In this document: piece after piece, positions 3,297-15,799 of the stretch
Layout of the letters: each line of letters opens with the position of its first letter
How positions within the stretch are numbered: position 1 is the first letter of the stretch
Source of the DNA: Candidatus Hydrogenedentota bacterium
Lineage (GTDB): Bacteria > Hydrogenedentota > Hydrogenedentia > Hydrogenedentales > SLHB01
Reading direction: 5' to 3'
Length of the DNA stretch: 17,779 nucleotides
Assembly (NCBI GenBank): GCA_034408725.1
Contig: JAWXCN010000254.1
Coordinates: forward strand, 1-17,779
The notes under the pieces: model-generated
What the model was told of the DNA's origin: nothing
The model's input: only the letters and a program-made list of their open reading frames with translations
The model's database searches: none
Program-made: the position numbers and the translations under genes

Positions 3297-3323
3297 TGTA
3301 GGATGGTAGAGGAGGTATCCGCC

Positions 3324-4853
3324 ATGGACCCCTTGCAGACAGCGCTACGGCGTCTCCGGCTGCGATTGTTCATTGTGCAGTGGACGCGCGCCCTTGTGTG
3401 GTCATTAATTATATCCACGGGACTCGCCTGTGTTTGGCTTACCATCGCCCGATTGTTTCCATCCGTTGGCAATGTCGAAACTGTCACTGTAGGCCTCGTT
3501 GGATTCGGGCTGCTCGCCGCGACGGCTCGTGCCCTGTGGAAACGCCCGAACATGTTGGGCGCGGCCCTCGAGGCTGACCGGCGCCTGGGGTTGCAGGAAC
3601 GCATCACCAGTTCGCTTCAGTTGACCGATGCCGATGGCCCTATGGTCGGTGCCGTACACGACGACGCCCGCAAGCAGTTAGCGCGGCTCAACTACACCCG
3701 CGAATTTCCTTTCACGACGCCCCGTTCAATCCGCTGGCTAGCTATGCCGGTCGTCCTCTATCTGGTCGCCTACGTGTTGCTGCCGGAATTTGATTTGTTG
3801 TCGCAGCGAAAACGCGAAGCCGAAGCCAAGGCGAAGGAAGTCGCGGTCCGCGTCGAGGCGGATCGCCTTGTCGAAGCGGTGAAACCGTTGCGCGAGCTTG
3901 GGCTGGAAGAAAGCACGAAAGTCGAAGGCATCGCGATGGAAGTCGAGCGTATCGCGGAGCAGATGAAGCTGGGCAAACTCAGCGAGAAAACGGCGTTCGC
4001 GAAGCTCACGAATCTAACCGATCAGCTTGCCGAACAGCGCCAGAAATTGCAGGCGAAATCGCCGTTGCCGCAGTTGAGCAATGAAATTGCAAAGCTCGAC
4101 AAAACCAAGGAACTCGCCGAGAACATTCAGAAAGGCGATTTCACCAAGGCGCTGGAGAAGGCGCAAGAACTTGCCGCGAAAATAGAATCCGGCGATATGA
4201 AGCCGGAAGAAAAAGAAGCGCTTTCAAAAGAACTCGATCAATTGTCCAAGGCGTTGTCCGAAATGAGTCCGGAGCTCGCGGAAGCGCTGTCGAAAATGGC
4301 GGCGGGCATGAAAATGAATGACGCCGCGCAGATGCAGATGGCAATGGACGCAATGAAGATGTCCCTGGAGGACATGAAGTCCTTGATGGCGCAGTTGCAG
4401 AAAATGGCCCAATCTGAAGGCAAACTGGGCGAGTGCAAAAACAAGTTGTATTGCGCGACCTGCGTGGGTATGTGCAAGACGGGGAACTGCGCCGGCGTGG
4501 GCGCGGGCTTGCGTGGAAAAGGACAGGGCCGTGGAAACCGGATCGGCGAACTGCCTGAAACGAAAACAGCGACCGACCCCTCAATGGCGCCTGGCGACGT
4601 CACGAAGGGCAAAATACTTGCCACGATTATGCAGCGTACTGCACCCGGCGAGGGTGAGCAAGCGTCGGTGGATTATTCCTCCCAGGCGCTGGTGCAAATC
4701 CAGCAGCAAAGCGAGGAAGCGCTGACGAAGGAAGAAATACCCGCCGGCGCGAAGGAATTCGTGCGGCAGTATTTTGGATCGCTTGAACCAGAAGGTGATC
4801 GGACGGAATCGAAACCTGCCGCGGCGGCTGGAACGATCGCGGGTTCGGAGTAG
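3324..4853 (+). CDS. Membrane-anchored coiled-coil protein of MoxR/vWA gene clusters (DUF4175-like architecture)
   Basis: Two N-terminal TM helices, ADRRLGLQERITSSLQL, a third TM helix, a long E/K/Q/L/M coiled coil, a Cys cluster, a Gly-rich linker and C-terminal EEALTKEEIPAGAKEFVRQYFGSL (cf. IP..Y...V..YF). Strong SD GAGGAGG before ATG 3324. Confidence 0.75.
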   Translation: MDPLQTALRRLRLRLFIVQWTRALVWSLIISTGLACVWLTIARLFPSVGNVETVTVGLVGFGLLAATARALWKRPNMLGAALEADRRLGLQERITSSLQLTDADGPMVGAVHDDARKQLARLNYTREFPFTTPRSIRWLAMPVVLYLVAYVLLPEFDLLSQRKREAEAKAKEVAVRVEADRLVEAVKPLRELGLEESTKVEGIAMEVERIAEQMKLGKLSEKTAFAKLTNLTDQLAEQRQKLQAKSPLPQLSNEIAKLDKTKELAENIQKGDFTKALEKAQELAAKIESGDMKPEEKEALSKELDQLSKALSEMSPELAEALSKMAAGMKMNDAAQMQMAMDAMKMSLEDMKSLMAQLQKMAQSEGKLGECKNKLYCATCVGMCKTGNCAGVGAGLRGKGQGRGNRIGELPETKTATDPSMAPGDVTKGKILATIMQRTAPGEGEQASVDYSSQALVQIQQQSEEALTKEEIPAGAKEFVRQYFGSLEPEGDRTESKPAAAAGTIAGSE

Positions 4854-5888: not shown

Positions 5889-8845
5889 GCGATTGGCTTT
5901 CCAGCATCAACCTGTTTTCAATCCGATTTTCCTATCCCTGGGCATTGTTGTTCCTCGTTCTGATTCCCTACACGATATGGCTTGGCCGGCATGTCCGTTC
6001 ATTGGGCAAAGCGCGGAAATGGTTGGCGATCGTATTACGGTGCATGGTGCTGCTCTGCCTAATCGCGGCCTTGGCGGGCACAGAGCTTGTGCGGATCAAC
6101 GATCGGCTTGCGGTATTTTTTCTACTCGACCGCTCCAACAGCATTCCGGAAGAACAACGCGAGGCAACGCAGCAAGCCGTGCAAACGCTCGCCGGTGCAT
6201 TCATGACGTCCAGAGACGAAGCAGGCGTAATTTCCTTTGGCCAGGAACCGAGCATTGAACTGACCGTAGGACCGAGTCTCGGGCTAACCAGTGTGCAATC
6301 CTATGTCGGCGGCGAACAAACCGATCTCGCCGCGGCGATCCGATTGGCAATCGCCGCATTTCCCCAAGGGTACATGCGCCGTATCGTCGTGTTCACGGAT
6401 GGCAACGAGACCCGCGGTTCAGCGTTGGAAGAAGTCAAACTGGCGCAGGCGAGTGGCGCGTCCGTCGACATCGTGCCCATCGCGATTGGCGGCCGGAGTG
6501 AAGTGCGCATCGCAGGCGTTACCGCGCCAAACCGCGTGAACGCGAACGAACCGTTCAAGGTGCAAGTCAATGTTCACGCGGACCAGGATGGCCCAGCCAC
6601 GTTGCGGTTGTACCAGAAAGTCAGTGATGGCACGGTCATGCTCCCGCCCGCTGAAGTGATGCTGCAAAAAGGCGCGAACGCATTTCTACTGCCGCAGGAA
6701 TTGAGCGCGTCCGGGTTCTACGAATACGAAGCTGTCATAGAGTCACCCAATGACACTGTGGTCGCAAACAATGAAGGGCGCGCATATACCGTCATCCACG
6801 GAGAGCCGACCGTGTTATATCTGGCATCCGACCCTGAGCACAGCCAGCGGTTGGCGCCCGCAATGCAGCAGGAAGGAATCACCGTCACGCCGGTCGACCT
6901 CGGATCGATGCCGTCGTCGCTTGCGCAACTTCAAAACTACGACGCAGTGGTGCTCGACGATGTAAGCGCAACCGATTTGACGAATGAGCAACTTCGTTCG
7001 CTCGAAGCGATGGTGCGTGATTTCGGCGTCGGCCTTGTCATGGTCGGCGGACCGAACTCCTACGGCGCGGGCGGATATTTCGACACCCCGGTCGAACGCG
7101 CGTTGCCGGTAAGCATGGACCTGAAACAACGCAAACAGATGCCGCAGGGCGCGCTCGTGGTGATTCTGCATACTTGCGAATTTCCCGATGGAAACGCATG
7201 GGCGCGCGACATTGCGCTCGCGGCACTCGACGTTCTATCGAGCCAGGACCTCATGGGCGCGCTTGCCTACGATTGGAAAGTTGGCGAAGACTGGTTGTTC
7301 GATCTGCAACTTGTCGGTGACAAATCCGCGATGCGCCAGGCGCTCAACACGACAAATATAGGCGATATGCCGTCCGCAGATCCTACCTTGCAGATGGCAT
7401 ACGACGCGCTTGCGGCCAGCACGGCATCGGTCAAACGCGTCATTCTTATCTCCGACGGCGACCCCGCTGCTCCAAATGCCGCTTTGCTTACGCAATTACA
7501 GGCAGCAGCTATTTCAGTCAGCACCTGTTGCATCAACCCGCACAGCCCATCCGATCAGCAGATGCTCCAATACGTCGCGGCCCAAACCGGTGGCAACTAC
7601 TATTTCGTGTCCAACCCCGCCAAGCTCCCGCAGATTTTCACGAAGGAGGCAGCGTTGGTAAAGCGTGGGTTGCTCGTCGAGGATACTTTCGTGCCCGTTG
7701 TCCAATACGACTCCGAGATTCTGCGGGGCATGGCGGCCGATGCGCTTCCGCCATTGCAGGGCTACGTTGCCACCACGCCAAAAGAAAGCGCGATCATTTC
7801 GCTTATATCGGACAAAGGAGACCCTGTTCTTGCGCAATGGCGGTTCGGTCTCGGCAAATCGGTTGCCTTCACTTCGGACGTGACGAGCAGGTGGGCCGCG
7901 GATTGGCTCGCGTGGGACGGCTTCAACCGGTTCTGGTCGCAGACCGTGCGATGGGCCATGCGCGAGGCGTCGCCGTCGAATTTCCGTGTCGACACGCGCG
8001 TTCGCGACGGCAAAGGCTACGTGAAAATCGATGCAGTCGACGAACAGGGCAAGTACATCAATTTTCTCAAGCCCCAAGGCACTGTAACGGGACCGCCGCC
8101 AGAGTTCGCGCGGCAGGACATCGCACTCGCGCAGACCGCGCCGGGCATCTACGAGGCCACTTTCCCGCTCGGCAATCGCGGCGTGTACATGATCAACATG
8201 ACCTATACGCGCGAAGACGGGTCGCAGGGCATGATCCCCGCCGGGCTCGCTCTGGACTATTCCAAAGAATACGAATACAACACGACCAACATGCCATTGA
8301 TCGAACAGTTGGCTTCCGTCGGTGGCGGACGCGTCGTGAAACCTACTGACAATCCATTCGAACACAATCTCCCCATGTCCGAATCGGTCACGCCTATCTG
8401 GCCGTATCTCGCCGCGCTTGGAGTTGGCCTGTTCCCCGTCGAGATATTCGTGCGCAGAGTAATGTTTGATTTAAGCCGGCTGTTCGTAGGGCTGTTCGCC
8501 GTGTTGCGGAAAATCCCGGGACTGCACCGCATCATTCCCGCGCCCAAGCGCAGGCGCTCCCAGCTCACTGGCGCGTACGGCACGATGACTGCCCCGTCGA
8601 AAAGTTTTGTCTATGTGGCATCGGGTTCGTTTTCGGTGGCGGGGCAGGCCGCGGCGGTATCCGCGCACGTGCCGGAGAATGCGCCGGTCGCGGATGGAGG
8701 GGAAGTAATCGTGAACGCGGAAGAAATGAAAGCCGTTGGACGCAGCGAGTACACGCGGCAGTTGTTGGAAGCAAAAGAACGCGCGCTCGACAAGCGCAAA
8801 CGCAGGCGAAAAGCGCCCGGATCGCCGGACGACAAGGAGCAATAG
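5885..8845 (+). CDS. Large membrane protein: N-terminal double TM, vWA, Ig-like, glutamine-amidotransferase-like domain, second (variant) vWA, C-terminal TM
   Basis: vWA1 MIDAS LLDRSNS..TDL..VFTDG. GATase-like segment YDAVVLDDV...GVGLVMVGGPNSYGAGGY...VERALPV, closed later by DPVLAQWRFGLGKSVAFTSD...W..W. vWA2 ILHTCEF...ISDGD. GTGA overlap with the NHL gene stop. Confidence 0.85.
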   Translation: MSDWLSSINLFSIRFSYPWALLFLVLIPYTIWLGRHVRSLGKARKWLAIVLRCMVLLCLIAALAGTELVRINDRLAVFFLLDRSNSIPEEQREATQQAVQTLAGAFMTSRDEAGVISFGQEPSIELTVGPSLGLTSVQSYVGGEQTDLAAAIRLAIAAFPQGYMRRIVVFTDGNETRGSALEEVKLAQASGASVDIVPIAIGGRSEVRIAGVTAPNRVNANEPFKVQVNVHADQDGPATLRLYQKVSDGTVMLPPAEVMLQKGANAFLLPQELSASGFYEYEAVIESPNDTVVANNEGRAYTVIHGEPTVLYLASDPEHSQRLAPAMQQEGITVTPVDLGSMPSSLAQLQNYDAVVLDDVSATDLTNEQLRSLEAMVRDFGVGLVMVGGPNSYGAGGYFDTPVERALPVSMDLKQRKQMPQGALVVILHTCEFPDGNAWARDIALAALDVLSSQDLMGALAYDWKVGEDWLFDLQLVGDKSAMRQALNTTNIGDMPSADPTLQMAYDALAASTASVKRVILISDGDPAAPNAALLTQLQAAAISVSTCCINPHSPSDQQMLQYVAAQTGGNYYFVSNPAKLPQIFTKEAALVKRGLLVEDTFVPVVQYDSEILRGMAADALPPLQGYVATTPKESAIISLISDKGDPVLAQWRFGLGKSVAFTSDVTSRWAADWLAWDGFNRFWSQTVRWAMREASPSNFRVDTRVRDGKGYVKIDAVDEQGKYINFLKPQGTVTGPPPEFARQDIALAQTAPGIYEATFPLGNRGVYMINMTYTREDGSQGMIPAGLALDYSKEYEYNTTNMPLIEQLASVGGGRVVKPTDNPFEHNLPMSESVTPIWPYLAALGVGLFPVEIFVRRVMFDLSRLFVGLFAVLRKIPGLHRIIPAPKRRRSQLTGAYGTMTAPSKSFVYVASGSFSVAGQAAAVSAHVPENAPVADGGEVIVNAEEMKAVGRSEYTRQLLEAKERALDKRKRRRKAPGSPDDKEQ

Positions 8846-8846
8846 C

Positions 8847-9842
8847 ATGGACGTTGTGAAAGAGGCCGAAGAGTTTCGCCAGGATTTCAAGCGCTTGCAC
8901 GATGAAATTTCAAAGGTCATCGTCGGCGGCGAGGGCATTATCGACGGGGTGCTCACGTGCCTGTTCGCCGGCGGGCACTGCCTCCTCGAGGGCGTGCCAG
9001 GGCTGGGCAAAACGCTGCTGGTGCGTACGCTGAGCGAGGCGTTGAGCCTCAACTTCTCGCGCATCCAGTTCACGCCGGACCTCATGCCCGCCGACATCAT
9101 CGGCACCAATATCATCGCCGAAGACGACGCGGGACGCCGCGAATTCAGGTTTAGGCCAGGTCCGCTTTTCGCCAACATTGTGCTAGCCGACGAGATCAAT
9201 CGCGCCACGCCTAAAACACAGTCCGCGCTACTTGAGGCCATGCAGGAACACACCGTCAGTGTCGCGCGGCAGATTCATAAACTCGAAGAACCGTTTTTCG
9301 TCATGGCGACGCAAAACCCGATCGAAATGGAAGGCACGTACACGCTGCCGGAAGCGCAGTTGGACCGGTTCTTCTTCAAGCTGCTGCTCGATTATCCGAA
9401 CGAGAATGATTTGATGTCGATCCTCGCGCGGACCACCGTGCGCGACGTGGCCAAAGGCACACCGGTGATGGACTCCGCATCCATCAAGCGCTGGCAAGGC
9501 CTCGTTCGTGACGTCGCCGCCGCGCCGCAAGTCGTGAATTACGCCGTCCGGCTCGTGCTCGGCACGCAACCGTCCAAACAACACTCCACCGACATGGTCA
9601 CCAAATACGTGCGCTACGGTTCGAGCCCGCGCGGCGCACAGGCGCTCATGCTCGGCGCAAAGGTGAACGCCTTGCGCGCGGGCAGGTTTAACGTGAGTTT
9701 CGATGATATCCGCGCCGCCGCGCTTCCAGCCTTGCGGCATCGCATCATTCTGAACTTCGAAGGTGAAGCGGATGGGGTGAAAACGGATCAAGTTGTCGCA
9801 GACCTTCTGAAACATACCGATACCAGCGCAAAGGTCGCTTGA
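8847..9842 (+). CDS. moxR: MoxR-family AAA+ ATPase
   Basis: Walker A GVPGLGKT, RIQFTPDLMPADIIG, Walker B LADEINRATPKTQSALLEAMQE, ATQNPIEMEGTYTLPEAQLDRF and GSSPRG. SD AAGGAG 8834-8839 before ATG 8847 (the ORF-track start at 8736 overlaps the upstream gene). Confidence 0.95.
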   Translation: MDVVKEAEEFRQDFKRLHDEISKVIVGGEGIIDGVLTCLFAGGHCLLEGVPGLGKTLLVRTLSEALSLNFSRIQFTPDLMPADIIGTNIIAEDDAGRREFRFRPGPLFANIVLADEINRATPKTQSALLEAMQEHTVSVARQIHKLEEPFFVMATQNPIEMEGTYTLPEAQLDRFFFKLLLDYPNENDLMSILARTTVRDVAKGTPVMDSASIKRWQGLVRDVAAAPQVVNYAVRLVLGTQPSKQHSTDMVTKYVRYGSSPRGAQALMLGAKVNALRAGRFNVSFDDIRAAALPALRHRIILNFEGEADGVKTDQVVADLLKHTDTSAKVA

Positions 9843-9870
9843 TATCGGGTTCCGGGTTTCGGGTATCGCA
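9843..9870 (+). repeat. Left arm of a perfect 28-bp inverted repeat (heptamer units CGGGTTC/CGGGTTT/CGGGTAT)
   Basis: TATCGGGTTCCGGGTTTCGGGTATCGCA is the exact reverse complement of 10348-10375. It begins at the base immediately after the moxR TGA. Confidence 0.95.
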
Positions 9871-9901
9871 AACTTGAGACCCGCAGCCGGAAAGGAATTA
9901 C

Positions 9902-10288
9902 ATGGCCGACAAGCTCAAAAAAAATGGTGAACTGGATGTATGGAAAAAATCCGTGGATATGGTCGTGTCAATTTACGAACTATCAAAGACATTTCCTGCG
10001 TCTGAAAAATTTGGTCTCACATCTCAAATACAACGTGCGGCAGTGTCGATTCCTGCTAACATCGCCGAGGGGTATGGGCGTTCGCACCGTCGTGAATATA
10101 TGCAGCATGTGTCAATCGCACGAGGTTCATTGGCTGAACTCGAGACACATTTAATCATCGCTGTGAAACTCGGCTACGTTTCGAGGGACGAATCAAAAAT
10201 CGTTTGGAACCTGGCTCAGATCGTTGGAAAAATGCTCATAAGGCTTTCGCAATCGCTTTCGACTACGAATAGCAATGTGTCAGTGTAG
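9902..10288 (+). CDS. Four helix bundle protein (23S rRNA intervening-sequence protein / Avd-like family)
   Basis: 128 aa with ELDVWKKS..V..IYEL.K.FPASEKFGLTSQIQRAAVSIPANIAEGYGR...EY...VSIARGSLAELETHL, the diagnostic family motifs. SD AAGGA 9892-9896. Confidence 0.95.
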   Translation: MADKLKKNGELDVWKKSVDMVVSIYELSKTFPASEKFGLTSQIQRAAVSIPANIAEGYGRSHRREYMQHVSIARGSLAELETHLIIAVKLGYVSRDESKIVWNLAQIVGKMLIRLSQSLSTTNSNVSV

Positions 10289-10347
10289 ATATTGGAAATT
10301 CGGATATGAGTGTTCGAGACAAAAAGGCCCATTGCGTGCATTTATTC

Positions 10348-10380
10348 TGCGATACCCGAAACCCGGAACCCGATACCCGA
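10348..10380 (-). repeat. Right arm of the inverted repeat (28 bp perfect at 10348-10375, plus one extra heptamer)
   Basis: TGCGATACCCGAAACCCGGAACCCGATACCCGA, with tandem units ATACCCG/AAACCCG/GAACCCG/ATACCCG. It ends 8 nt before the DUF58 SD (GAGGT 10389-10393). Confidence 0.95.
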
Positions 10381-10398
10381 TTTACGGTGAGGTAGCTT

Positions 10399-11289
10399 AT
10401 GACGACTGAAACACCATCCCTGCTCTCCGCTGAATTCCTGCAGCGGCTGGATCGGCTCGCCCTAATCGCGCGCAAAACCCAGATTGGTGGCATGAAAGGT
10501 GAGCGTAGAAGCAAGCGGAAGGGCAGCAGCGTCGAATTCGCCGATTACCGCGATTATGTGCAGGGCGATGATTTGCGGCATGTGGATTGGAATATCTATG
10601 CGCGCTTGGAATCCCTTTACCTCAAGTTATTTCAGGAACAGGAAGACCTGACCGTTCATTTGCTAATTGATTCGAGCCGGTCCATGGCATTTGGCGAACC
10701 ATCGAAAATTGATCTTGCAACTAAACTTGCCGCTGCAATCGGATATATCGGTTTAGTGGGATACGACCGCGTGTCCGCGGAATCATTTGCGGACGGAACA
10801 ACCCACCGCTTGCAACCTTGCCGCGGTCGCGCAAACGCCGCAAAGCTGTTGTCATTCATGAGCGCGATCCAGCCCGATGGCCGCACCGCGCTCGAAGCCT
10901 CGACAAAATCTTACTCGCTACGCAACCGCGCGAAAGGCGTCGCAGTGCTTTTCTCCGATTTCCTCGACCCGGAAGGGTTCGATGGTTGCCTGCGCAGACT
11001 GCAACAAACGGGGTCGGATTGTTACGCGATCCACGTGCTGTCGCGCGACGAAATTGATCCGCCGGTTGCCGGTGATCTGCGGCTCCTTGACAGTGAATTC
11101 GCCGTTCATGTGGAAGTCAGCGCGAGCCCGGGCCTAATCAAACGCTATAAACATAACCTCGAAGGCTTTTGCGAAAGCATCCGCAAACAATGCCTGTCGC
11201 GCGGCATTGGCTATATTTTCGCGCCCAGCGATGAATCGTTTGAACGTCTCACGCTTGACGTGCTGCGCCGGGGAGGAATGCTCCGATGA
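10399..11289 (+). CDS. DUF58 domain-containing protein (vWA-like MoxR partner)
   Basis: GERRSKRKGSSVEFADYRDYVQGDDLRHVDWNIYAR...LYLKLFQEQED, plus MIDAS-like LIDSSRSM..GRT..FSDF. Confidence 0.93.
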   Translation: MTTETPSLLSAEFLQRLDRLALIARKTQIGGMKGERRSKRKGSSVEFADYRDYVQGDDLRHVDWNIYARLESLYLKLFQEQEDLTVHLLIDSSRSMAFGEPSKIDLATKLAAAIGYIGLVGYDRVSAESFADGTTHRLQPCRGRANAAKLLSFMSAIQPDGRTALEASTKSYSLRNRAKGVAVLFSDFLDPEGFDGCLRRLQQTGSDCYAIHVLSRDEIDPPVAGDLRLLDSEFAVHVEVSASPGLIKRYKHNLEGFCESIRKQCLSRGIGYIFAPSDESFERLTLDVLRRGGMLR

Positions 11290-13244
11290 ATGCCTGGGAA
11301 CTATTCTGGCGAAATACCGGCACAGTCCTTCGCAATGCGTTTCTCGCGCCGCCGTATCTCTGGTTTCTGGCGATTGTGCCGATCATTGTGTTGCTGTACC
11401 TGCTCAAACTCCGGCGCACACAGGTGGTGATCGCGAGCACGCTGCTGTGGATGAAGACCCTCGAAGACCTCACCGCGAATGCGCCATTCCAGCGGTTGCG
11501 AAAAAACCTGTTGTTGCTCCTTCAGATAATTATTGCGCTGCTGATCGCCTTTGCGCTCGCGCGTCCGTTCATTAAAACGCAAGGCGCGGCCGGGCAGAAC
11601 CTGTGCGTCCTGATAGACCGCTCCGCCAGCATGCAAACGCGCGAAGGCGAACAAACCCGATTGGACCTGGCAAAACAACAGGCGGTCGAAATGGTCAATG
11701 CGATGCAGCGAGGCGATAAAATGATGGTGCTTAGTTTTGCGGAAAATTCCGATGTGCTTTGCGAACTCACCGAGGACCGTTCGCGGTTACGTGGCGCGAT
11801 CGCTTCCATCGAACCCAGCGACACTGCCACGCGCCTGCGCGACGCATTCTTCGTGGCGCATTCGCTTCGGCTCACGGTGGCCGATCTCCACGCGGTCGTC
11901 ATCAGCGACGGCAACATCCACGATCTTGCGGAGATTGGGCCGCGCGAATTCGGGCAGTCCCGGGAAGTCGCCGACCAGTCCACGGAAGCGCGTTCACGCG
12001 GCTACGATCTGAGCTTCCTCCAGGTCGGTTCGACGAACAACAACGTCGGCATAACCGAATTCAGCAAACGCGAACCCGTCCCGGGCGCGTCAGGCGAACA
12101 GCAGGCGCTCGTGGCGGTGCAGAACGCCGGCGCGGAAATGTCCGCGGTCACCGTCACGCTCTCCTTCAACGATCAACCCCTTGCCGTCGAAGGCGTCGAA
12201 ATTGCGCCGGGCGAAACCCGGGAACTCGTATTCGCGCATCCAGAATTAGGCGAAGGCATTCTGAAAGCAGTGTTGGATAGCGACGACGCATTGATGGTGG
12301 ACAACACGGCGTGGCTGTCGTTGCGGCCCGCGGCGAAACTGCGCGTGTTGCTCGTTGCCCAGCCCGACGCGACGGGCACGTATTTTCTGCAACGCGTGTT
12401 GGCGCCTGATCCGCGTGTTGAACTCAGCACCATCGCGCCGGTCAACTACACGCCCACCGCGGGTTACGATTTGACCGTTTTTTACGATCACGCGCCCGAT
12501 GCGCTCCCGGAGGGCACGCTGCTATTCATCAAGGCGTTGCCCCCCATCGAGGGCCTCGTATCTGAAGGCACGATTGAGAATCCCCCTGTTGTTGCCGTTG
12601 ACGCGGAACATCCTCTCATGCGATTCAATTTGAATCCCGCGAACGTCGGAATACAGTCCGCGGTCAAGGCGGTATTGCCTGAAGGCTCGCGGCCGGTTGT
12701 TTCCACGACAGGCGGCGCGCTGATTGCCGACGTGTCTCGCGGCGGACAACAAATTGTATGGATCGCATTTGATCTCACGGATTCGGATTGGCCCCTGAAT
12801 TTGTCATTTCCGCTGTTCTTTCAAAATGTGCTCGCATGGGCGCCGCGTTCCGCGTTGGCCTCGGAAAGCTCAGTAGACGCGGGCCGTCCGATTACGTTGA
12901 TTGGCCAATCCGACGTCGCTGCTGCAGTGATTACGCGACCCGACGGAACGCAGGAAACGGTTCCGCTCGATCCCCTGCGCCCGGTGTTCTACAGTAATAC
13001 CCAGCAGGCCGGTGTTTACACGGCGCAACTGGGCGATAATACAGAGCGGTTTGCGGTGAACCTGCTTGATCCGGCCGAGTCCGCGGTGGCGCCGTCCGAT
13101 GCGCTCGCGATTGGCCGGGGTGATTTCGAGGCGGAACGCGGCAACGTGCGGCAGAACCGCGAATATTGGCGCGCGCTTTTGGTAGTGGCGCTATGCGTGC
13201 TTGCGCTGGAATGGCTGGTGTTCAGCCGGAGGGCGTGGATGTGA
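11286..13244 (+). CDS. BatA-like N-terminal double-TM + vWA domain membrane protein
   Basis: PIIVLLYLLKLRR..V.IASTLLW...LLLLLQ.....LIAFALARP (BatA N-terminal double TM), MIDAS LIDRSASM..TAT..ISDG and C-terminal TM REYWRALLVVALCVLALEW. ATGA overlap with the DUF58 stop. Confidence 0.88.
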   Translation: MNAWELFWRNTGTVLRNAFLAPPYLWFLAIVPIIVLLYLLKLRRTQVVIASTLLWMKTLEDLTANAPFQRLRKNLLLLLQIIIALLIAFALARPFIKTQGAAGQNLCVLIDRSASMQTREGEQTRLDLAKQQAVEMVNAMQRGDKMMVLSFAENSDVLCELTEDRSRLRGAIASIEPSDTATRLRDAFFVAHSLRLTVADLHAVVISDGNIHDLAEIGPREFGQSREVADQSTEARSRGYDLSFLQVGSTNNNVGITEFSKREPVPGASGEQQALVAVQNAGAEMSAVTVTLSFNDQPLAVEGVEIAPGETRELVFAHPELGEGILKAVLDSDDALMVDNTAWLSLRPAAKLRVLLVAQPDATGTYFLQRVLAPDPRVELSTIAPVNYTPTAGYDLTVFYDHAPDALPEGTLLFIKALPPIEGLVSEGTIENPPVVAVDAEHPLMRFNLNPANVGIQSAVKAVLPEGSRPVVSTTGGALIADVSRGGQQIVWIAFDLTDSDWPLNLSFPLFFQNVLAWAPRSALASESSVDAGRPITLIGQSDVAAAVITRPDGTQETVPLDPLRPVFYSNTQQAGVYTAQLGDNTERFAVNLLDPAESAVAPSDALAIGRGDFEAERGNVRQNREYWRALLVVALCVLALEWLVFSRRAWM

Positions 13245-15799
13245 AGATAGCAAACAGTATCGCGCGATCTGCAGGGGCAACGTGCGCGTGCGCATGTCTC
13301 GTGCTTGCCGCGTATGCCCAACCCGAACCCGGACCCATCGGCGAAGGCCAGTTGGTGGTGGACGTTCTGCCGCAGTTCGTGACGACGCTACGCCCGGATT
13401 CCTGGGTTCCCGTCGATATTCTCGTCAACAACAACAAGCAGGACATCTCCGGTTCGCTTCAGCTCACATTGCTAAACAACGACGACCGGCTAAGCCCCAT
13501 TTACCGGTTGCCCATCGATTCTCCAAAGAATTCGCGCAAGCGGTTCCGAATGTATTGCAACTTCAAGAACGCGACGTCGATGTCGGTGATGTTATACAAC
13601 GGCCGTCGCGCGGCGCTGCCCGATGACATCAGGCTGACCTTGCGCCCGATCAATCCCAATGACGTGCTGGCGCTGATTCTCGACGACGAACCGTCGGACT
13701 ACGGATTCCTGTTCAACGCAGTGCAGGAGATCGGCGAAGGAGTGGGGGTTCACCGCGAAAGTTTGCGCACCGAAGAACTCAGCCAGTTGCCCGAATATCC
13801 GCAGTGTTACGAACCGTACACACTCATTGTGCTTGGCCGGATCGATCCCGAAGCAATTCCAACGCGGCAACGCGAACTTCTCCGCCGCTACGTCGAACAC
13901 GGCGGATTGCTGGTCGTGTGCCTCGGCGAGAACGCGCCGCGATACCGGGGAACCTGGGTCGAAGAACTCGCGGGCGCGGGCATAGGCGAGGTCCAGGCGT
14001 CCGACGAAGCGGCCTATGCCGCGCGCGTGTTCAGCCCCGAGTGGGCAGGAGGCGCGAGGGAAGGCAAGAGCATTCTGTATGCGCGCATTGCGCCGCAGCC
14101 GGGCGTTTACGTGCCCGCGAGCGCCGCCCCGGAAACCGTCGCGGACAGGGAGGTGGCGGTGGTAGTGCGCCCCATCGGTTCCGGTCATGTCGCCGTCGTT
14201 GCGACGGATGCCGCGGGAAAGGCGCTTCAGGGGTCGAAGGGTTTTGTGCAGGTGTGGCGGAACCTCATCGCGTTGCGCCAGGAAACCACCGAATTGCACT
14301 ATGACCATGCCGCGTCACAAGCCGAATACGCGTTGCCGTCCGCGACGGGAATTCGGGTATACCCGCGATCATCAGTGCTGATCTATCTCGGGCTCTACTT
14401 CGCAATCGGCATCGTGGGCAACTGGATATTTTGGAGTTTGTTCAAACGGCGGGAGATGGCGTGGGTTTGCCTGATATTCATTTCATTCGGATTTACAGCG
14501 TACGCGCTCGTATATGGGACCGCGGGCCGCGCGAAACAAACCGAAATCGCGCAGCTCGAAGTCGTCCGGCTTCCGAAAGAAAGCCCGACAGCCCGCGTCC
14601 GCTCAACGGTAGGCGTGGTCGCGGCGAGGTCATCCAGATACACGCTGACATTTCCAAACGCCTTCCCGCTGGTGTCCGATATCGCGGGCGCGCCGCTGAT
14701 GGGCATGCCGATGCAGGATTCCCTCCTCGACCGTGTGAACGCATTTCACTTTGTGCAGGGGCCGGAGTCCACGGTCGAGAACCTCACCGTCGGCGCGAGC
14801 ACCATGCGGTTAATCCAGGTGGACTCCGAGATTGCGTCGCCCGGAAAAATTGAGGGCGCCCTCACCTGGGATGCCGACGGTATCCACGGCGAATTGACGA
14901 ACGCCACCGGGCTGGTGATCCAGGCGCCGTTTTTGGTGGTGAACGGTAAGCGGTTTTCCGTGCAACAACGCGACGGCGTCTGGGTAGTGAACGTGCCGGC
15001 AACGAGTATTGACTCGCGTGAATTGACGACGCAGTCCCCAACGATTCGCTACGGGATGTATGGAATGTATGGAGGCGATTTGCTTGACGTAGCCCAGTTG
15101 CGCGAGGGATTCGTGTCGGATTTGCTGACAGCCGACGCAATATCCGGATTTAGCGATGCGCGTATCGGCCCGTTTGTGTGCGGATGGGTCGAGGGCAAGC
15201 CCGTTCGCAGCATCGATATTGGCGAACCCGCAACCGAACGCATTCACGCCACGTTGCTGGTCGCCGACGTTGATATCGACAGGTTGGCCTCGGCAGGAGG
15301 GCGACAATCCGAAATAACGGTGAGCATCACGCCAGATAACACATTAAGATTAAGACAAAATTATCCCGGCTACTACGCGAACTATGGCGGAGGCCCGCAA
15401 ATGTACGACATCAGCGGCAACGAGCCGTTGGAGGTATTAATTTCGTTGCCTCGATATTTGCTCGCCGGCGCTGGCGGCCGCATCGAAGTGAGTGTGTACT
15501 GGACCGCCAATAGTGGCGGGTCCGTTGTCTTTTCGCCAAAGGATGCGCCCGGCGTGTGGGCAGACGAGAATCTGCTGAACACCACAACGACGACAAGCCA
15601 GGGCGAAACCATCAACGTCACCACGTTTGCCCTGAAGGACTGGGCTGAGCGAATTGATCCAAAGTCCGGATTGCTCGAAGGCAAACTGATGTTGACGAAA
15701 AGTGGGGCCAATCCCTATGCCCGCGCCACGGCGCGCGCGCACATAATCGAGTCGCAAACGGATTCCTACGGCGGAGACTGGAAACCATGGCAATCGTAG
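13241..15799 (+). CDS. Large exported/membrane protein with glutamine-amidotransferase-like domain and central TM pair
   Basis: GTG 13241 overlaps the previous TGA (GTGA), with SD GGAGG 13228-13232. Signal-peptide-like N-terminus (..CLVLAAYA|QPEP), RPDSWVPV, GATase-fold-like LIVLG...LRRYVEHGGLLVV...GSGHVAVV, and TM pair VLIYLGLYFAIGIVGNW...KRREMAWVCL...FTAYALVYG. Confidence 0.75.
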   Translation: MKIANSIARSAGATCACACLVLAAYAQPEPGPIGEGQLVVDVLPQFVTTLRPDSWVPVDILVNNNKQDISGSLQLTLLNNDDRLSPIYRLPIDSPKNSRKRFRMYCNFKNATSMSVMLYNGRRAALPDDIRLTLRPINPNDVLALILDDEPSDYGFLFNAVQEIGEGVGVHRESLRTEELSQLPEYPQCYEPYTLIVLGRIDPEAIPTRQRELLRRYVEHGGLLVVCLGENAPRYRGTWVEELAGAGIGEVQASDEAAYAARVFSPEWAGGAREGKSILYARIAPQPGVYVPASAAPETVADREVAVVVRPIGSGHVAVVATDAAGKALQGSKGFVQVWRNLIALRQETTELHYDHAASQAEYALPSATGIRVYPRSSVLIYLGLYFAIGIVGNWIFWSLFKRREMAWVCLIFISFGFTAYALVYGTAGRAKQTEIAQLEVVRLPKESPTARVRSTVGVVAARSSRYTLTFPNAFPLVSDIAGAPLMGMPMQDSLLDRVNAFHFVQGPESTVENLTVGASTMRLIQVDSEIASPGKIEGALTWDADGIHGELTNATGLVIQAPFLVVNGKRFSVQQRDGVWVVNVPATSIDSRELTTQSPTIRYGMYGMYGGDLLDVAQLREGFVSDLLTADAISGFSDARIGPFVCGWVEGKPVRSIDIGEPATERIHATLLVADVDIDRLASAGGRQSEITVSITPDNTLRLRQNYPGYYANYGGGPQMYDISGNEPLEVLISLPRYLLAGAGGRIEVSVYWTANSGGSVVFSPKDAPGVWADENLLNTTTTTSQGETINVTTFALKDWAERIDPKSGLLEGKLMLTKSGANPYARATARAHIIESQTDSYGGDWKPWQS

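Follow-up and report, generated by a model that had tools for sequence, protein, structure and literature searches.

The window, as we call the whole 17,779-nt stretch of DNA analyzed here, is one complete contig (C254) of the 5.17-Mb, 280-contig genome of a Candidatus Hydrogenedentota bacterium (G000), and between its moxR and DUF58 genes it contains a cassette (9843-10381) in which a single gene of the four-helix-bundle family PF05635 is enclosed by inverted arrays of a heptameric repeat unit. This cassette is a real acquired element, the mechanism of which can be inferred only in part. The explanation that we favor, with a probability of roughly 55%, is that of an acquired and promoterless element of the 23S rRNA intervening sequence (IVS) type, in which the PF05635 gene and the unit arrays around it constitute a partner system similar to RAYT/REPIN. 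RAYTs are HUH/Y1 transposases, and a RAYT together with its REP sequences or REPINs is referred to as a REPtron. According to our proposal, the PF05635 gene would be transcribed by read-through from the host operon, and its basic, ring-forming product would recognize the repeat unit of its own cassette in either DNA or RNA. The cassette, which bears the gene, and the gene-less hairpins built of its unit would be autonomous and non-autonomous members of one family, as are RAYT genes and REPINs, and the enzyme for cutting and joining would presumably be supplied by the host. The 28-bp stem that the arms could form in the transcript might be cut by RNase III as in rRNA, but the complementarity of the arms would rather be renewed at the DNA level.

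The cassette and its insertion history

The junction is composed of the following features.

8736-9842, forward strand: moxR-type AAA+ ATPase gene, the upstream neighbor (PF07726 AAA_3, 211 bits; AAA_lid_2)
9843-9870, forward strand: left arm of three and a half NNCGGGT heptamers, G-rich strand inward (from the sequence)
9890-9897, forward strand: putative Shine-Dalgarno (SD)-like element GAAAGGAA, 5 nt upstream of the four-helix-bundle start codon (ATG)
9902-10288, forward strand: 128-aa four-helix-bundle gene (PF05635/TIGR02436, S23p/IVP family; from profile scores)
10348-10381, forward strand: right arm, the reverse complement of the left arm, with one extra ACCCGAT-type unit
9843-10381, forward strand: whole cassette of ~540 nt, without counterpart in 13 of 14 orthologous junctions
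10399-11289, forward strand: DUF58 gene, the downstream neighbor, with its own SD GAGG (PF01882, 121 bits)

The left arm (TATCGGGTTCCGGGTTTCGGGTATCGCA) is the exact reverse complement of 10348-10375 over 28 nt without a mismatch, and this cassette has an inverted-repeat score of 28. Its heptamers follow each other in the order ATCGGGT TCCGGGT TTCGGGT ATCGC, and the three complete ones lie 31 nt upstream of the ATG of the PF05635 gene. Both arms can be extended imperfectly to 43 nt at 84% identity, with the left arm continuing to 9885, and the extra unit of the right arm (10376-10381) follows directly on its 3' side. The moxR open reading frame (ORF) ends with a TGA at 9840-9842, and the left arm begins at the very next base; at the other end, 23 nt separate the right arm from the DUF58 ATG at 10399, and the DUF58 SD is kept 8 nt upstream of that ATG. 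The 128-aa ORF scored 131.5 bits with PF05635 (cut-off 33.8; residues 10-113 on profile positions 2-105/106), 121.2 bits with TIGR02436 (cut-off 24), and 141.2 bits with NF008911 (cut-off 137). The GC content is 45% for the 128-aa gene and 0.44-0.48 within the cassette, in comparison to 0.55-0.66 in the flanks and 0.57 in the whole genome, which places the cassette 12 points below the genome. An unchanged cassette was present in a second DNA sequencing run (791-nt piece, 9756-10546). The initial annotation, made from the window alone, had described a perfect heptamer-built inverted repeat around a four-helix-bundle gene of lower GC content, placed right after the moxR stop and just before the DUF58 SD, and direct comparison, profile scores, composition, and coordinates confirmed this description in each respect.

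Scans with promoter and terminator consensus sequences gave no match inside the cassette and none upstream of the four-helix-bundle gene, and PADLOC gave no match either. The further claim that the window holds no transposase, recombinase, or reverse transcriptase (RT) stood as far as Pfam reaches, since none was detected among the 12 large ORFs, two of which match no Pfam family. These two encode 516 aa (3303-4853) and 877 aa (13166-15799), and the latter also has no NCBIfam match, the 516-aa ORF being outside that scan.

To follow the history of the site, the DUF58 orthologue and its flanks were taken from 40 relatives, and the orthologous moxR-DUF58 junction was found in 14 of them. The initial annotation had suggested a search for empty sites, and in 10 of the 14 cases the junction is only 2-58 nt long. 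One junction, that of G001 from the same genus, contains a related cassette with a PF05635 gene (68% identical) and imperfect NNCGGGT arms, which likewise begin directly behind the stop. Other inserts occupy the remaining three, namely 272 nt of other short-unit arrays in G015, 206 nt in G025, and 1132 nt in G023. The G023 insert carries a 149-aa Y1_Tnp (IS200-like) gene (65.7 bits) flanked on both sides by 71-nt inverted repeats that are 94% identical and by its build would be a REPtron-like unit at the very site that holds the four-helix-bundle cassette in G000. The inverted repeats of this junction (L016:340-1490) are made of TTCCCCGAAGGGGA-type palindromes.

In a tree of moxR and DUF58, G000 pairs with the empty G003 (support 90/91) and G001 with the empty G002 (90/89), and the G000-G003 pair was recovered at 92/95 with moxR only. 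As the two occupied genomes are each paired with an empty one, at least two gain or loss events would be needed, which could be a twofold gain at one and the same base or a single gain followed by two clean losses. When the occupied site was compared with the empty ones of G003 and G002, no clear target-site duplication was apparent, the borders being ambiguous by no more than a single T (1 nt). The low GC content and the presence or absence among close relatives bear out the initially proposed discrete foreign insertion, and the opposite situation, with the gene at the same position in all relatives, host-like GC content, and no inverted repeat, is not what the 14 junctions show. Judged from these sequences, the cassette is an acquired insertion with a gain/loss history.

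Among six cassette genes, the proportion of nonsynonymous differences (pN) was 0.23-0.33 in comparison to a synonymous proportion (pS) of 0.68-0.88, which indicates that the four-helix-bundle protein is under purifying selection. Its nearest solved structure is 2gsc_A (E 1.3e-25, residues 8-115), followed by 2rld_A at 5e-07. The 2GSC entry contains five chains, and the accessible part of PMC4990558 describes 2GSC as a homopentameric ring.

Arms across the PF05635 family

Among 7189 candidates, 6988 were relatives of the protein at E<=1e-10, the nearest named ones from Candidatus Hydrogenedentes genomes. For a survey of gene surroundings, an alignment of 33 relatives led to the best 80 of 602 confirmed loci on one-genome-per-species contigs, and 75 of these loci had at least 150 nt on both sides. 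An inverted-repeat score of 14 or more across the gene was reached by 54 of the 75 loci, from many phyla, in comparison to 5 with the complement-only control, 1 with the reverse-only control, and 9 with direct repeats. A score of 18 or more was reached by one of the 75 loci in the composition-preserving complement-only control and by none in the reverse-only control. Viral contigs alone gave 26 armed cassettes out of 34 (4 in the control), and when the survey, the relatives' copies, and the viral contigs were pooled, 103 of 132 distinct cassettes were armed. Period 7 was best in 30 of the 54 armed loci (self-match of 0.6 or more) and, at lower values, in most of the others as well. Heptamer-built inverted arms are therefore carried by the family, and the contrary finding against which the initial annotation had weighed its proposal, namely that other members lack flanking inverted repeats, was not made for the family at large.

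The arms share more than their geometry. On the gene strand, the left arm contains more G than C in 90 cassettes and less in 8. This chirality is the same when read from either strand and means that, at both ends, the unit has its G-rich strand facing inward. When the units of 47 period-7 cassettes were rotated into register, a loose shared consensus, nYAGKGr, emerged with 3.72 bits, whereas column-shuffled controls gave 2.82 +/- 0.09 bits (maximum 2.98).

The position of the armed genes is also recurrent. A co-directional neighbor is located upstream in 47 of 53 cassettes and downstream in 37, and in 34 of the 53 the cassette lies within a co-directional gene pair. In 49 cassettes the upstream ORF is co-directional and at least 100 aa long. 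Among these, the start of the arm is at most 10 nt away from the end of the upstream stop codon in 33 cases and at most 3 nt away in 21; the arm itself includes the stop in 16, and the stop is a TAG in 25 (loci L037-L116). From the end of the right arm to the next possible start, the median distance is 13 nt, a lower bound. The cassettes thus fill short operon junctions and would depend on upstream transcription. Many of the units contain TAG, and at period 7 three successive units then provide a stop in every reading frame.

G000 itself contains a second junction of this kind. At C161:382-918 (L002), an armed PF05635 gene separates accB from accC, and its arms consist of GCTCGT and TAATCG hexamers. 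This cassette is also present in G001 (68% identical) and G003 (56%), while the junction consists of a gene-less 29-nt inverted repeat in G002 and of 329 nt in G004; in other genera, the accB-accC spacer is 8-60 nt long in 17 of 18 cases and 105 nt long in one. The arms are complementary in all three carriers despite differing unit variants, and a GCTCCT variant in one arm of the G001 cassette is mirrored in the opposite arm. This complementarity outlasts the saturation of synonymous sites between the species.

Altogether, five of the six PF05635 hits of G000 have arms, and no two of them share a unit class; the classes concerned are the commonest 6-7-nt array classes of the genome together with a 9-mer and a 10-mer class. 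One further locus, C161:7415-7968 (L003), has a PF05635 gene with an in-frame TAG between perfect 32-nt GATTTTA/G arms, and the TGA of the upstream gene overlaps the first unit; this locus may be a pseudogene with arms that are still perfect. Two weaker hits of about 30 bits are found on C183 (L005) and C259 (L006), the latter with an in-frame TAA inside the match, and they are flanked by arrays of 9-nt (..TCCCAT) and 10-nt (..CACGGAC) units. The design therefore extends beyond period 7. The partial 23S rRNA of G000 is located on contig C151, where none of the six hits lies.

Gene-less arrays of the same units

The TRF census of G000, which covered arrays of three or more copies, gave the following as the commonest unit classes.

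Period 6, G000: ACGAGC (56) and AATCGT (34)
Period 7, G000: AAAATCC/T (40) and ACCCGAT-like (about 27)
Period 9, G000: ...CCCAT
Period 10, G000: ...CACGGAC

The NNCGGGT unit of the window cassette forms dozens of gene-less inverted arrays in G000. All seven NNCGGGT array pairs have the same chirality, none the opposite one, and the cargo between them is either the PF05635 gene of the window or nothing. Among 41 related genomes, triple CGGGT units occur in four (69, 86, 22, and 17 matches; 0 with a reversed-pattern control in those four), and three of these four contain a CGGGT-armed PF05635 gene. Five genomes are rich in triple GATTTTR units (18-46 matches), and in each of them a PF05635 hit is flanked by arrays of this kind. 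Gene-less arrays and a PF05635 gene armed by the same unit thus occur together in eight of nine genome-by-class cases, and, in the sequences compared, related genomes without a gene armed by that unit are also without its gene-less arrays. The four CGGGT-armed proteins share 63-70% identity among themselves but 44-61% with proteins whose arms are of another unit, apart from a single case of 68%. In three Xanthomonadaceae genomes, from another phylum, we found 271, 139, and 42 matches to GGGAATN (control 0), and GGGAAT-type arms flank a PF05635 gene in two of them, Xanthomonas (271) and Pseudoxanthomonas (139).

The initial annotation had offered, as one of its readings, a minimal mobile or regulatory element whose protein binds the repeats. 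In its mobile-element form, with a protein that would bind the heptamer repeats, this idea gains indirect support from the co-occurrence of gene-less arrays with a same-unit armed gene.

Several gene-less NNCGGGT hairpins (C111:1441-1663, C153:8100-8358, C235:20264-20547, C89, C251) hold nested arrays of other units, namely TATTGG/CCAATA, TAATCG, and GCTCGT. Two loci on C111 share an inner stretch of 133 nt (78%) in opposite orientation. An all-versus-all BLAST of 18 NNCGGGT loci yielded mostly array-to-array matches and few shared inner stretches, too little to call a core of the kind known from miniature inverted-repeat transposable elements. Long NNCGGGT arrays were also found at contig ends of G000 (C110:170-239, C127:7-125, C47:229-284), where the repeats probably break the assembly, and for this reason the arrays and armed genes counted here represent minimum numbers.

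Competing explanations and known systems

A number of observations weigh against the partner-system explanation as given above. A clear arm pair is absent in 29 of the 132 pooled cassettes, and the sixth PF05635 copy of G000 (L004) is unarmed and GC-rich, like the host. G013, a 93% complete genome with CGGGT arrays, has five PF05635 hits, none of which is on an array-bearing contig, and the two examined are not CGGGT-armed. The co-occurrence of arrays and genes could be explained by simple co-descent, and genomes that are related to one another do not count as independent samples. Support in the tree is moderate, at about 90%, and the insertion cannot be dated because synonymous sites are near saturation in the cassette gene as well as in its flanks (pS 0.61-0.82 in the flanks, with the out-of-frame G003 moxR rows left out). 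No catalytic domain is recognizable in the four-helix-bundle protein, which therefore cannot be a transposase, and binding, mobility, and RNA processing are all functional steps that we infer.

Among the alternatives, the one that survives best, although we regard it as unlikely, is an mRNA-borne IVS, in which the arms are selected for their duplex, cleavage by RNase III or looping-out keeps moxR and DUF58, which are normally separated by 2-35 nt, functionally coupled, and the protein is dispensable cargo. In its favor, the 28-bp stem closes the predicted minimum-energy fold (-185 kcal/mol, z = -4.0, with 0 of 100 shuffles as good), and RNase III is encoded in G000. As far as PMC4990558 was accessible, the helix-45 23S IVS of Coxiella burnetii is 428 nt long and has a 28-bp terminal stem with two to three copies of the heptamer GACAGAT in the 5' arm upstream of its S23p ORF, and it is excised by RNase III cuts. 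RNase III-type processing of the window cassette as in this IVS would be possible on the strength of the modeled fold. The 34 co-directional gene pairs and the short distance left before the next start would also suit an IVS in mRNA, as would the arm complementarity with mirrored unit variants at accB-accC.

The mismatches between the arms speak against it. If pairing in the sense RNA were selected, G·U pairs should be favored over A·C, but the 365 arm mismatches in the 103 armed cassettes include 81 that are G·U-compatible on the sense strand and 82 of the A·C type, and the first 54 cassettes gave 50 and 54, respectively. G·U pairs earned no credit in the choice of the arm register, and the count therefore favors neither type. 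RNA pairing is thus not visibly the selected property, and the selection on an RNA duplex between the arms that had been suggested initially is not supported. Because there is no wobble signature, yet complementarity outlasts synonymous saturation at accB-accC, the data suggest that the arms may be renewed at the DNA level, whether by copying, arm-to-arm conversion, or fresh insertion. In addition, the gene is under purifying selection and is thus more than cargo, and an mRNA-borne IVS leaves the gene-less same-unit arrays and the shared unit consensus unexplained. Two candidate excision joints in contigs of four DNA runs (486-489 nt skipped) were rejected, since their sides are only 21-25 nt long, one of them has other letters in between, and they come from other hairpins of the NNCGGGT unit.

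Somewhat less probable again is a passive association, in which arrays born by slippage form recombination-prone hairpins, and the gene is cargo moved by homologous exchange with a product unrelated to the arrays, for example an RT partner. Rehm et al. (2015) ascribed the over-representation of heptamers in many bacteria to polymerase slippage in the accessible part of their paper (PMC4692102), the gene-less hairpins of G000 are nested composites of several unit classes, and the moxR-DUF58 junction looks like a general landing place, with the Y1-transposase gene in G023 and other arrays in G015. G000 furthermore encodes one RT (an RVT_1 hit) and has four Y1_Tnp hits, all on contigs other than the window. 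Against these points stand the cargo between same-unit array pairs, which is a PF05635 gene or nothing, the separate unit class of each armed gene of G000, and the closeness of the four CGGGT-armed proteins to one another, to which there is a single exception at 68%. Slippage also fails to explain the inward chirality (90 versus 8) and the unit consensus across phyla.

We consider it very improbable that the protein is a resident host factor that regulates the MoxR/DUF58/BatA operon, with the arms as operator or attenuator. The position inside the operon and the SD-like sequence before the ORF would fit such a factor, but the cassette is missing from 13 of the 14 orthologous junctions, including those of the two nearest relatives on the tree, its GC content is 12 points below that of the genome, and the same design recurs elsewhere, both in junctions of unrelated function such as that of accB and accC and behind a wide variety of genes at 100 or more loci. 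Hardly credible at all is a remnant of a diversity-generating retroelement (DGR) with the gene as Avd, for which the matches to PF22296 bAvd (27 bits) and NF033474 (29.2 bits) are weak and below the cut-offs of 40 and 80, the window contains no RT among its ORFs and no pair of template repeat (TR) and variable repeat (VR), and the only RVT_1 hit of the genome is on another contig.

The partner-system explanation can be compared with what is established for related elements. ORF-bearing 23S IVSs with S23p, which are the nearest relatives known for the window cassette, occur in Leptospira and Xanthomonas as well as in Coxiella. The window cassette resembles them in its PF05635 family, its similar size, the terminal 28-bp stem, the tandem heptamers by the ORF, and the lack of a transposase. 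It differs in lying between two protein-coding genes and not in a 23S rRNA helix (25 or 45), and RNase III excision has been demonstrated for the Coxiella IVS, whereas for the window cassette it would be a prediction. As the cassette is not in rRNA, we did not file it as a 23S IVS despite its S23p-type build. Gene-less dispersed arrays of the unit are not described for the Coxiella IVS in the accessible part of PMC4990558, where the IVS is discussed as a possible mobile or selfish element.

With RAYT/REPIN systems, the cassette has in common a single gene between inverted copies of its own repeat, the dispersal of this repeat as gene-less hairpins, and the relation of one gene to one repeat class. 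Unlike a RAYT, the PF05635 gene has no known catalytic motif, with Pfam matches only to PF05635 and bAvd, and the window repeats are tandem arrays of 6-10-nt units rather than single palindromes. The relationship to DGRs is one of fold. Avd acts together with an RT in these retroelements, and to our knowledge two structures have been solved for the S23p/IVP family and no function is known outside DGRs. PF05635 is homologous to Avd, and the comparison of 4DWL with 2GSC shows a four-helix-bundle fold in both, according to the accessible part of PMC10053308; unlike for a DGR, there is no RT, TR, or VR in the window, and the Avd-specific models remain below their cut-offs.

The dispersed heptamers of Rehm et al. 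offer a further parallel. In the accessible part of PMC4692102, GGGAATC of Xanthomonas and GGGGA(C/T)T of Nostoc are intergenic, with 70-75 convergent inverted pairs per Xanthomonas genome, and these over-represented repeats of unexplained function are treated as formers of G-quadruplexes. The units described here are likewise G-rich and 7 nt long, and GGGAAT-type arms are found on the PF05635 genes of Xanthomonas and Pseudoxanthomonas. The words "S23" and "intervening" do not occur in the main text of that paper, and in the literature outside subscription journals we found no description of heptamer-armed PF05635 cassettes outside rRNA and no link of such cassettes to dispersed heptamer repeats.

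A wider generalization is tentative and in our view doubtful: PF05635 proteins might be the trans-acting partners of phylum-spanning, transposase-less mobile hairpins, with the protein of each lineage recognizing its own 6-10-nt unit and maintaining or spreading the cassette and the gene-less arrays, so that the heptamer excess and the ORF-bearing 23S IVSs would be two faces of the same phenomenon. The window and its relatives tie the S23p/IVP family to heptamer repeats and provide a defined protein, a 7-nt unit, empty and occupied sites, and cultured, non-pathogenic carriers of the design, among them Luteimonas soli KCTC 42441 (L101), Adhaeretor mobilis HG15A2 (L072), and Sphingobacterium alkalisoli (L057). 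If the protein does recognize its own unit, this would explain what rRNA intervening sequences are, and it would establish a repeat-and-partner system comparable to RAYT/REPIN on the basis of a non-enzymatic ring protein.

In practical terms, these cassettes interrupt operon junctions that are translationally coupled and cause assemblies to break at contig ends, and they may mimic CRISPR-like repeats in automated screens. It is a speculation that flanking short-unit arrays are what CRISPR-association screens pick up. In a figure legend of a large clustering screen, "23S rRNA IVP" is listed among the CRISPR-array-associated proteins (PMC10910872).

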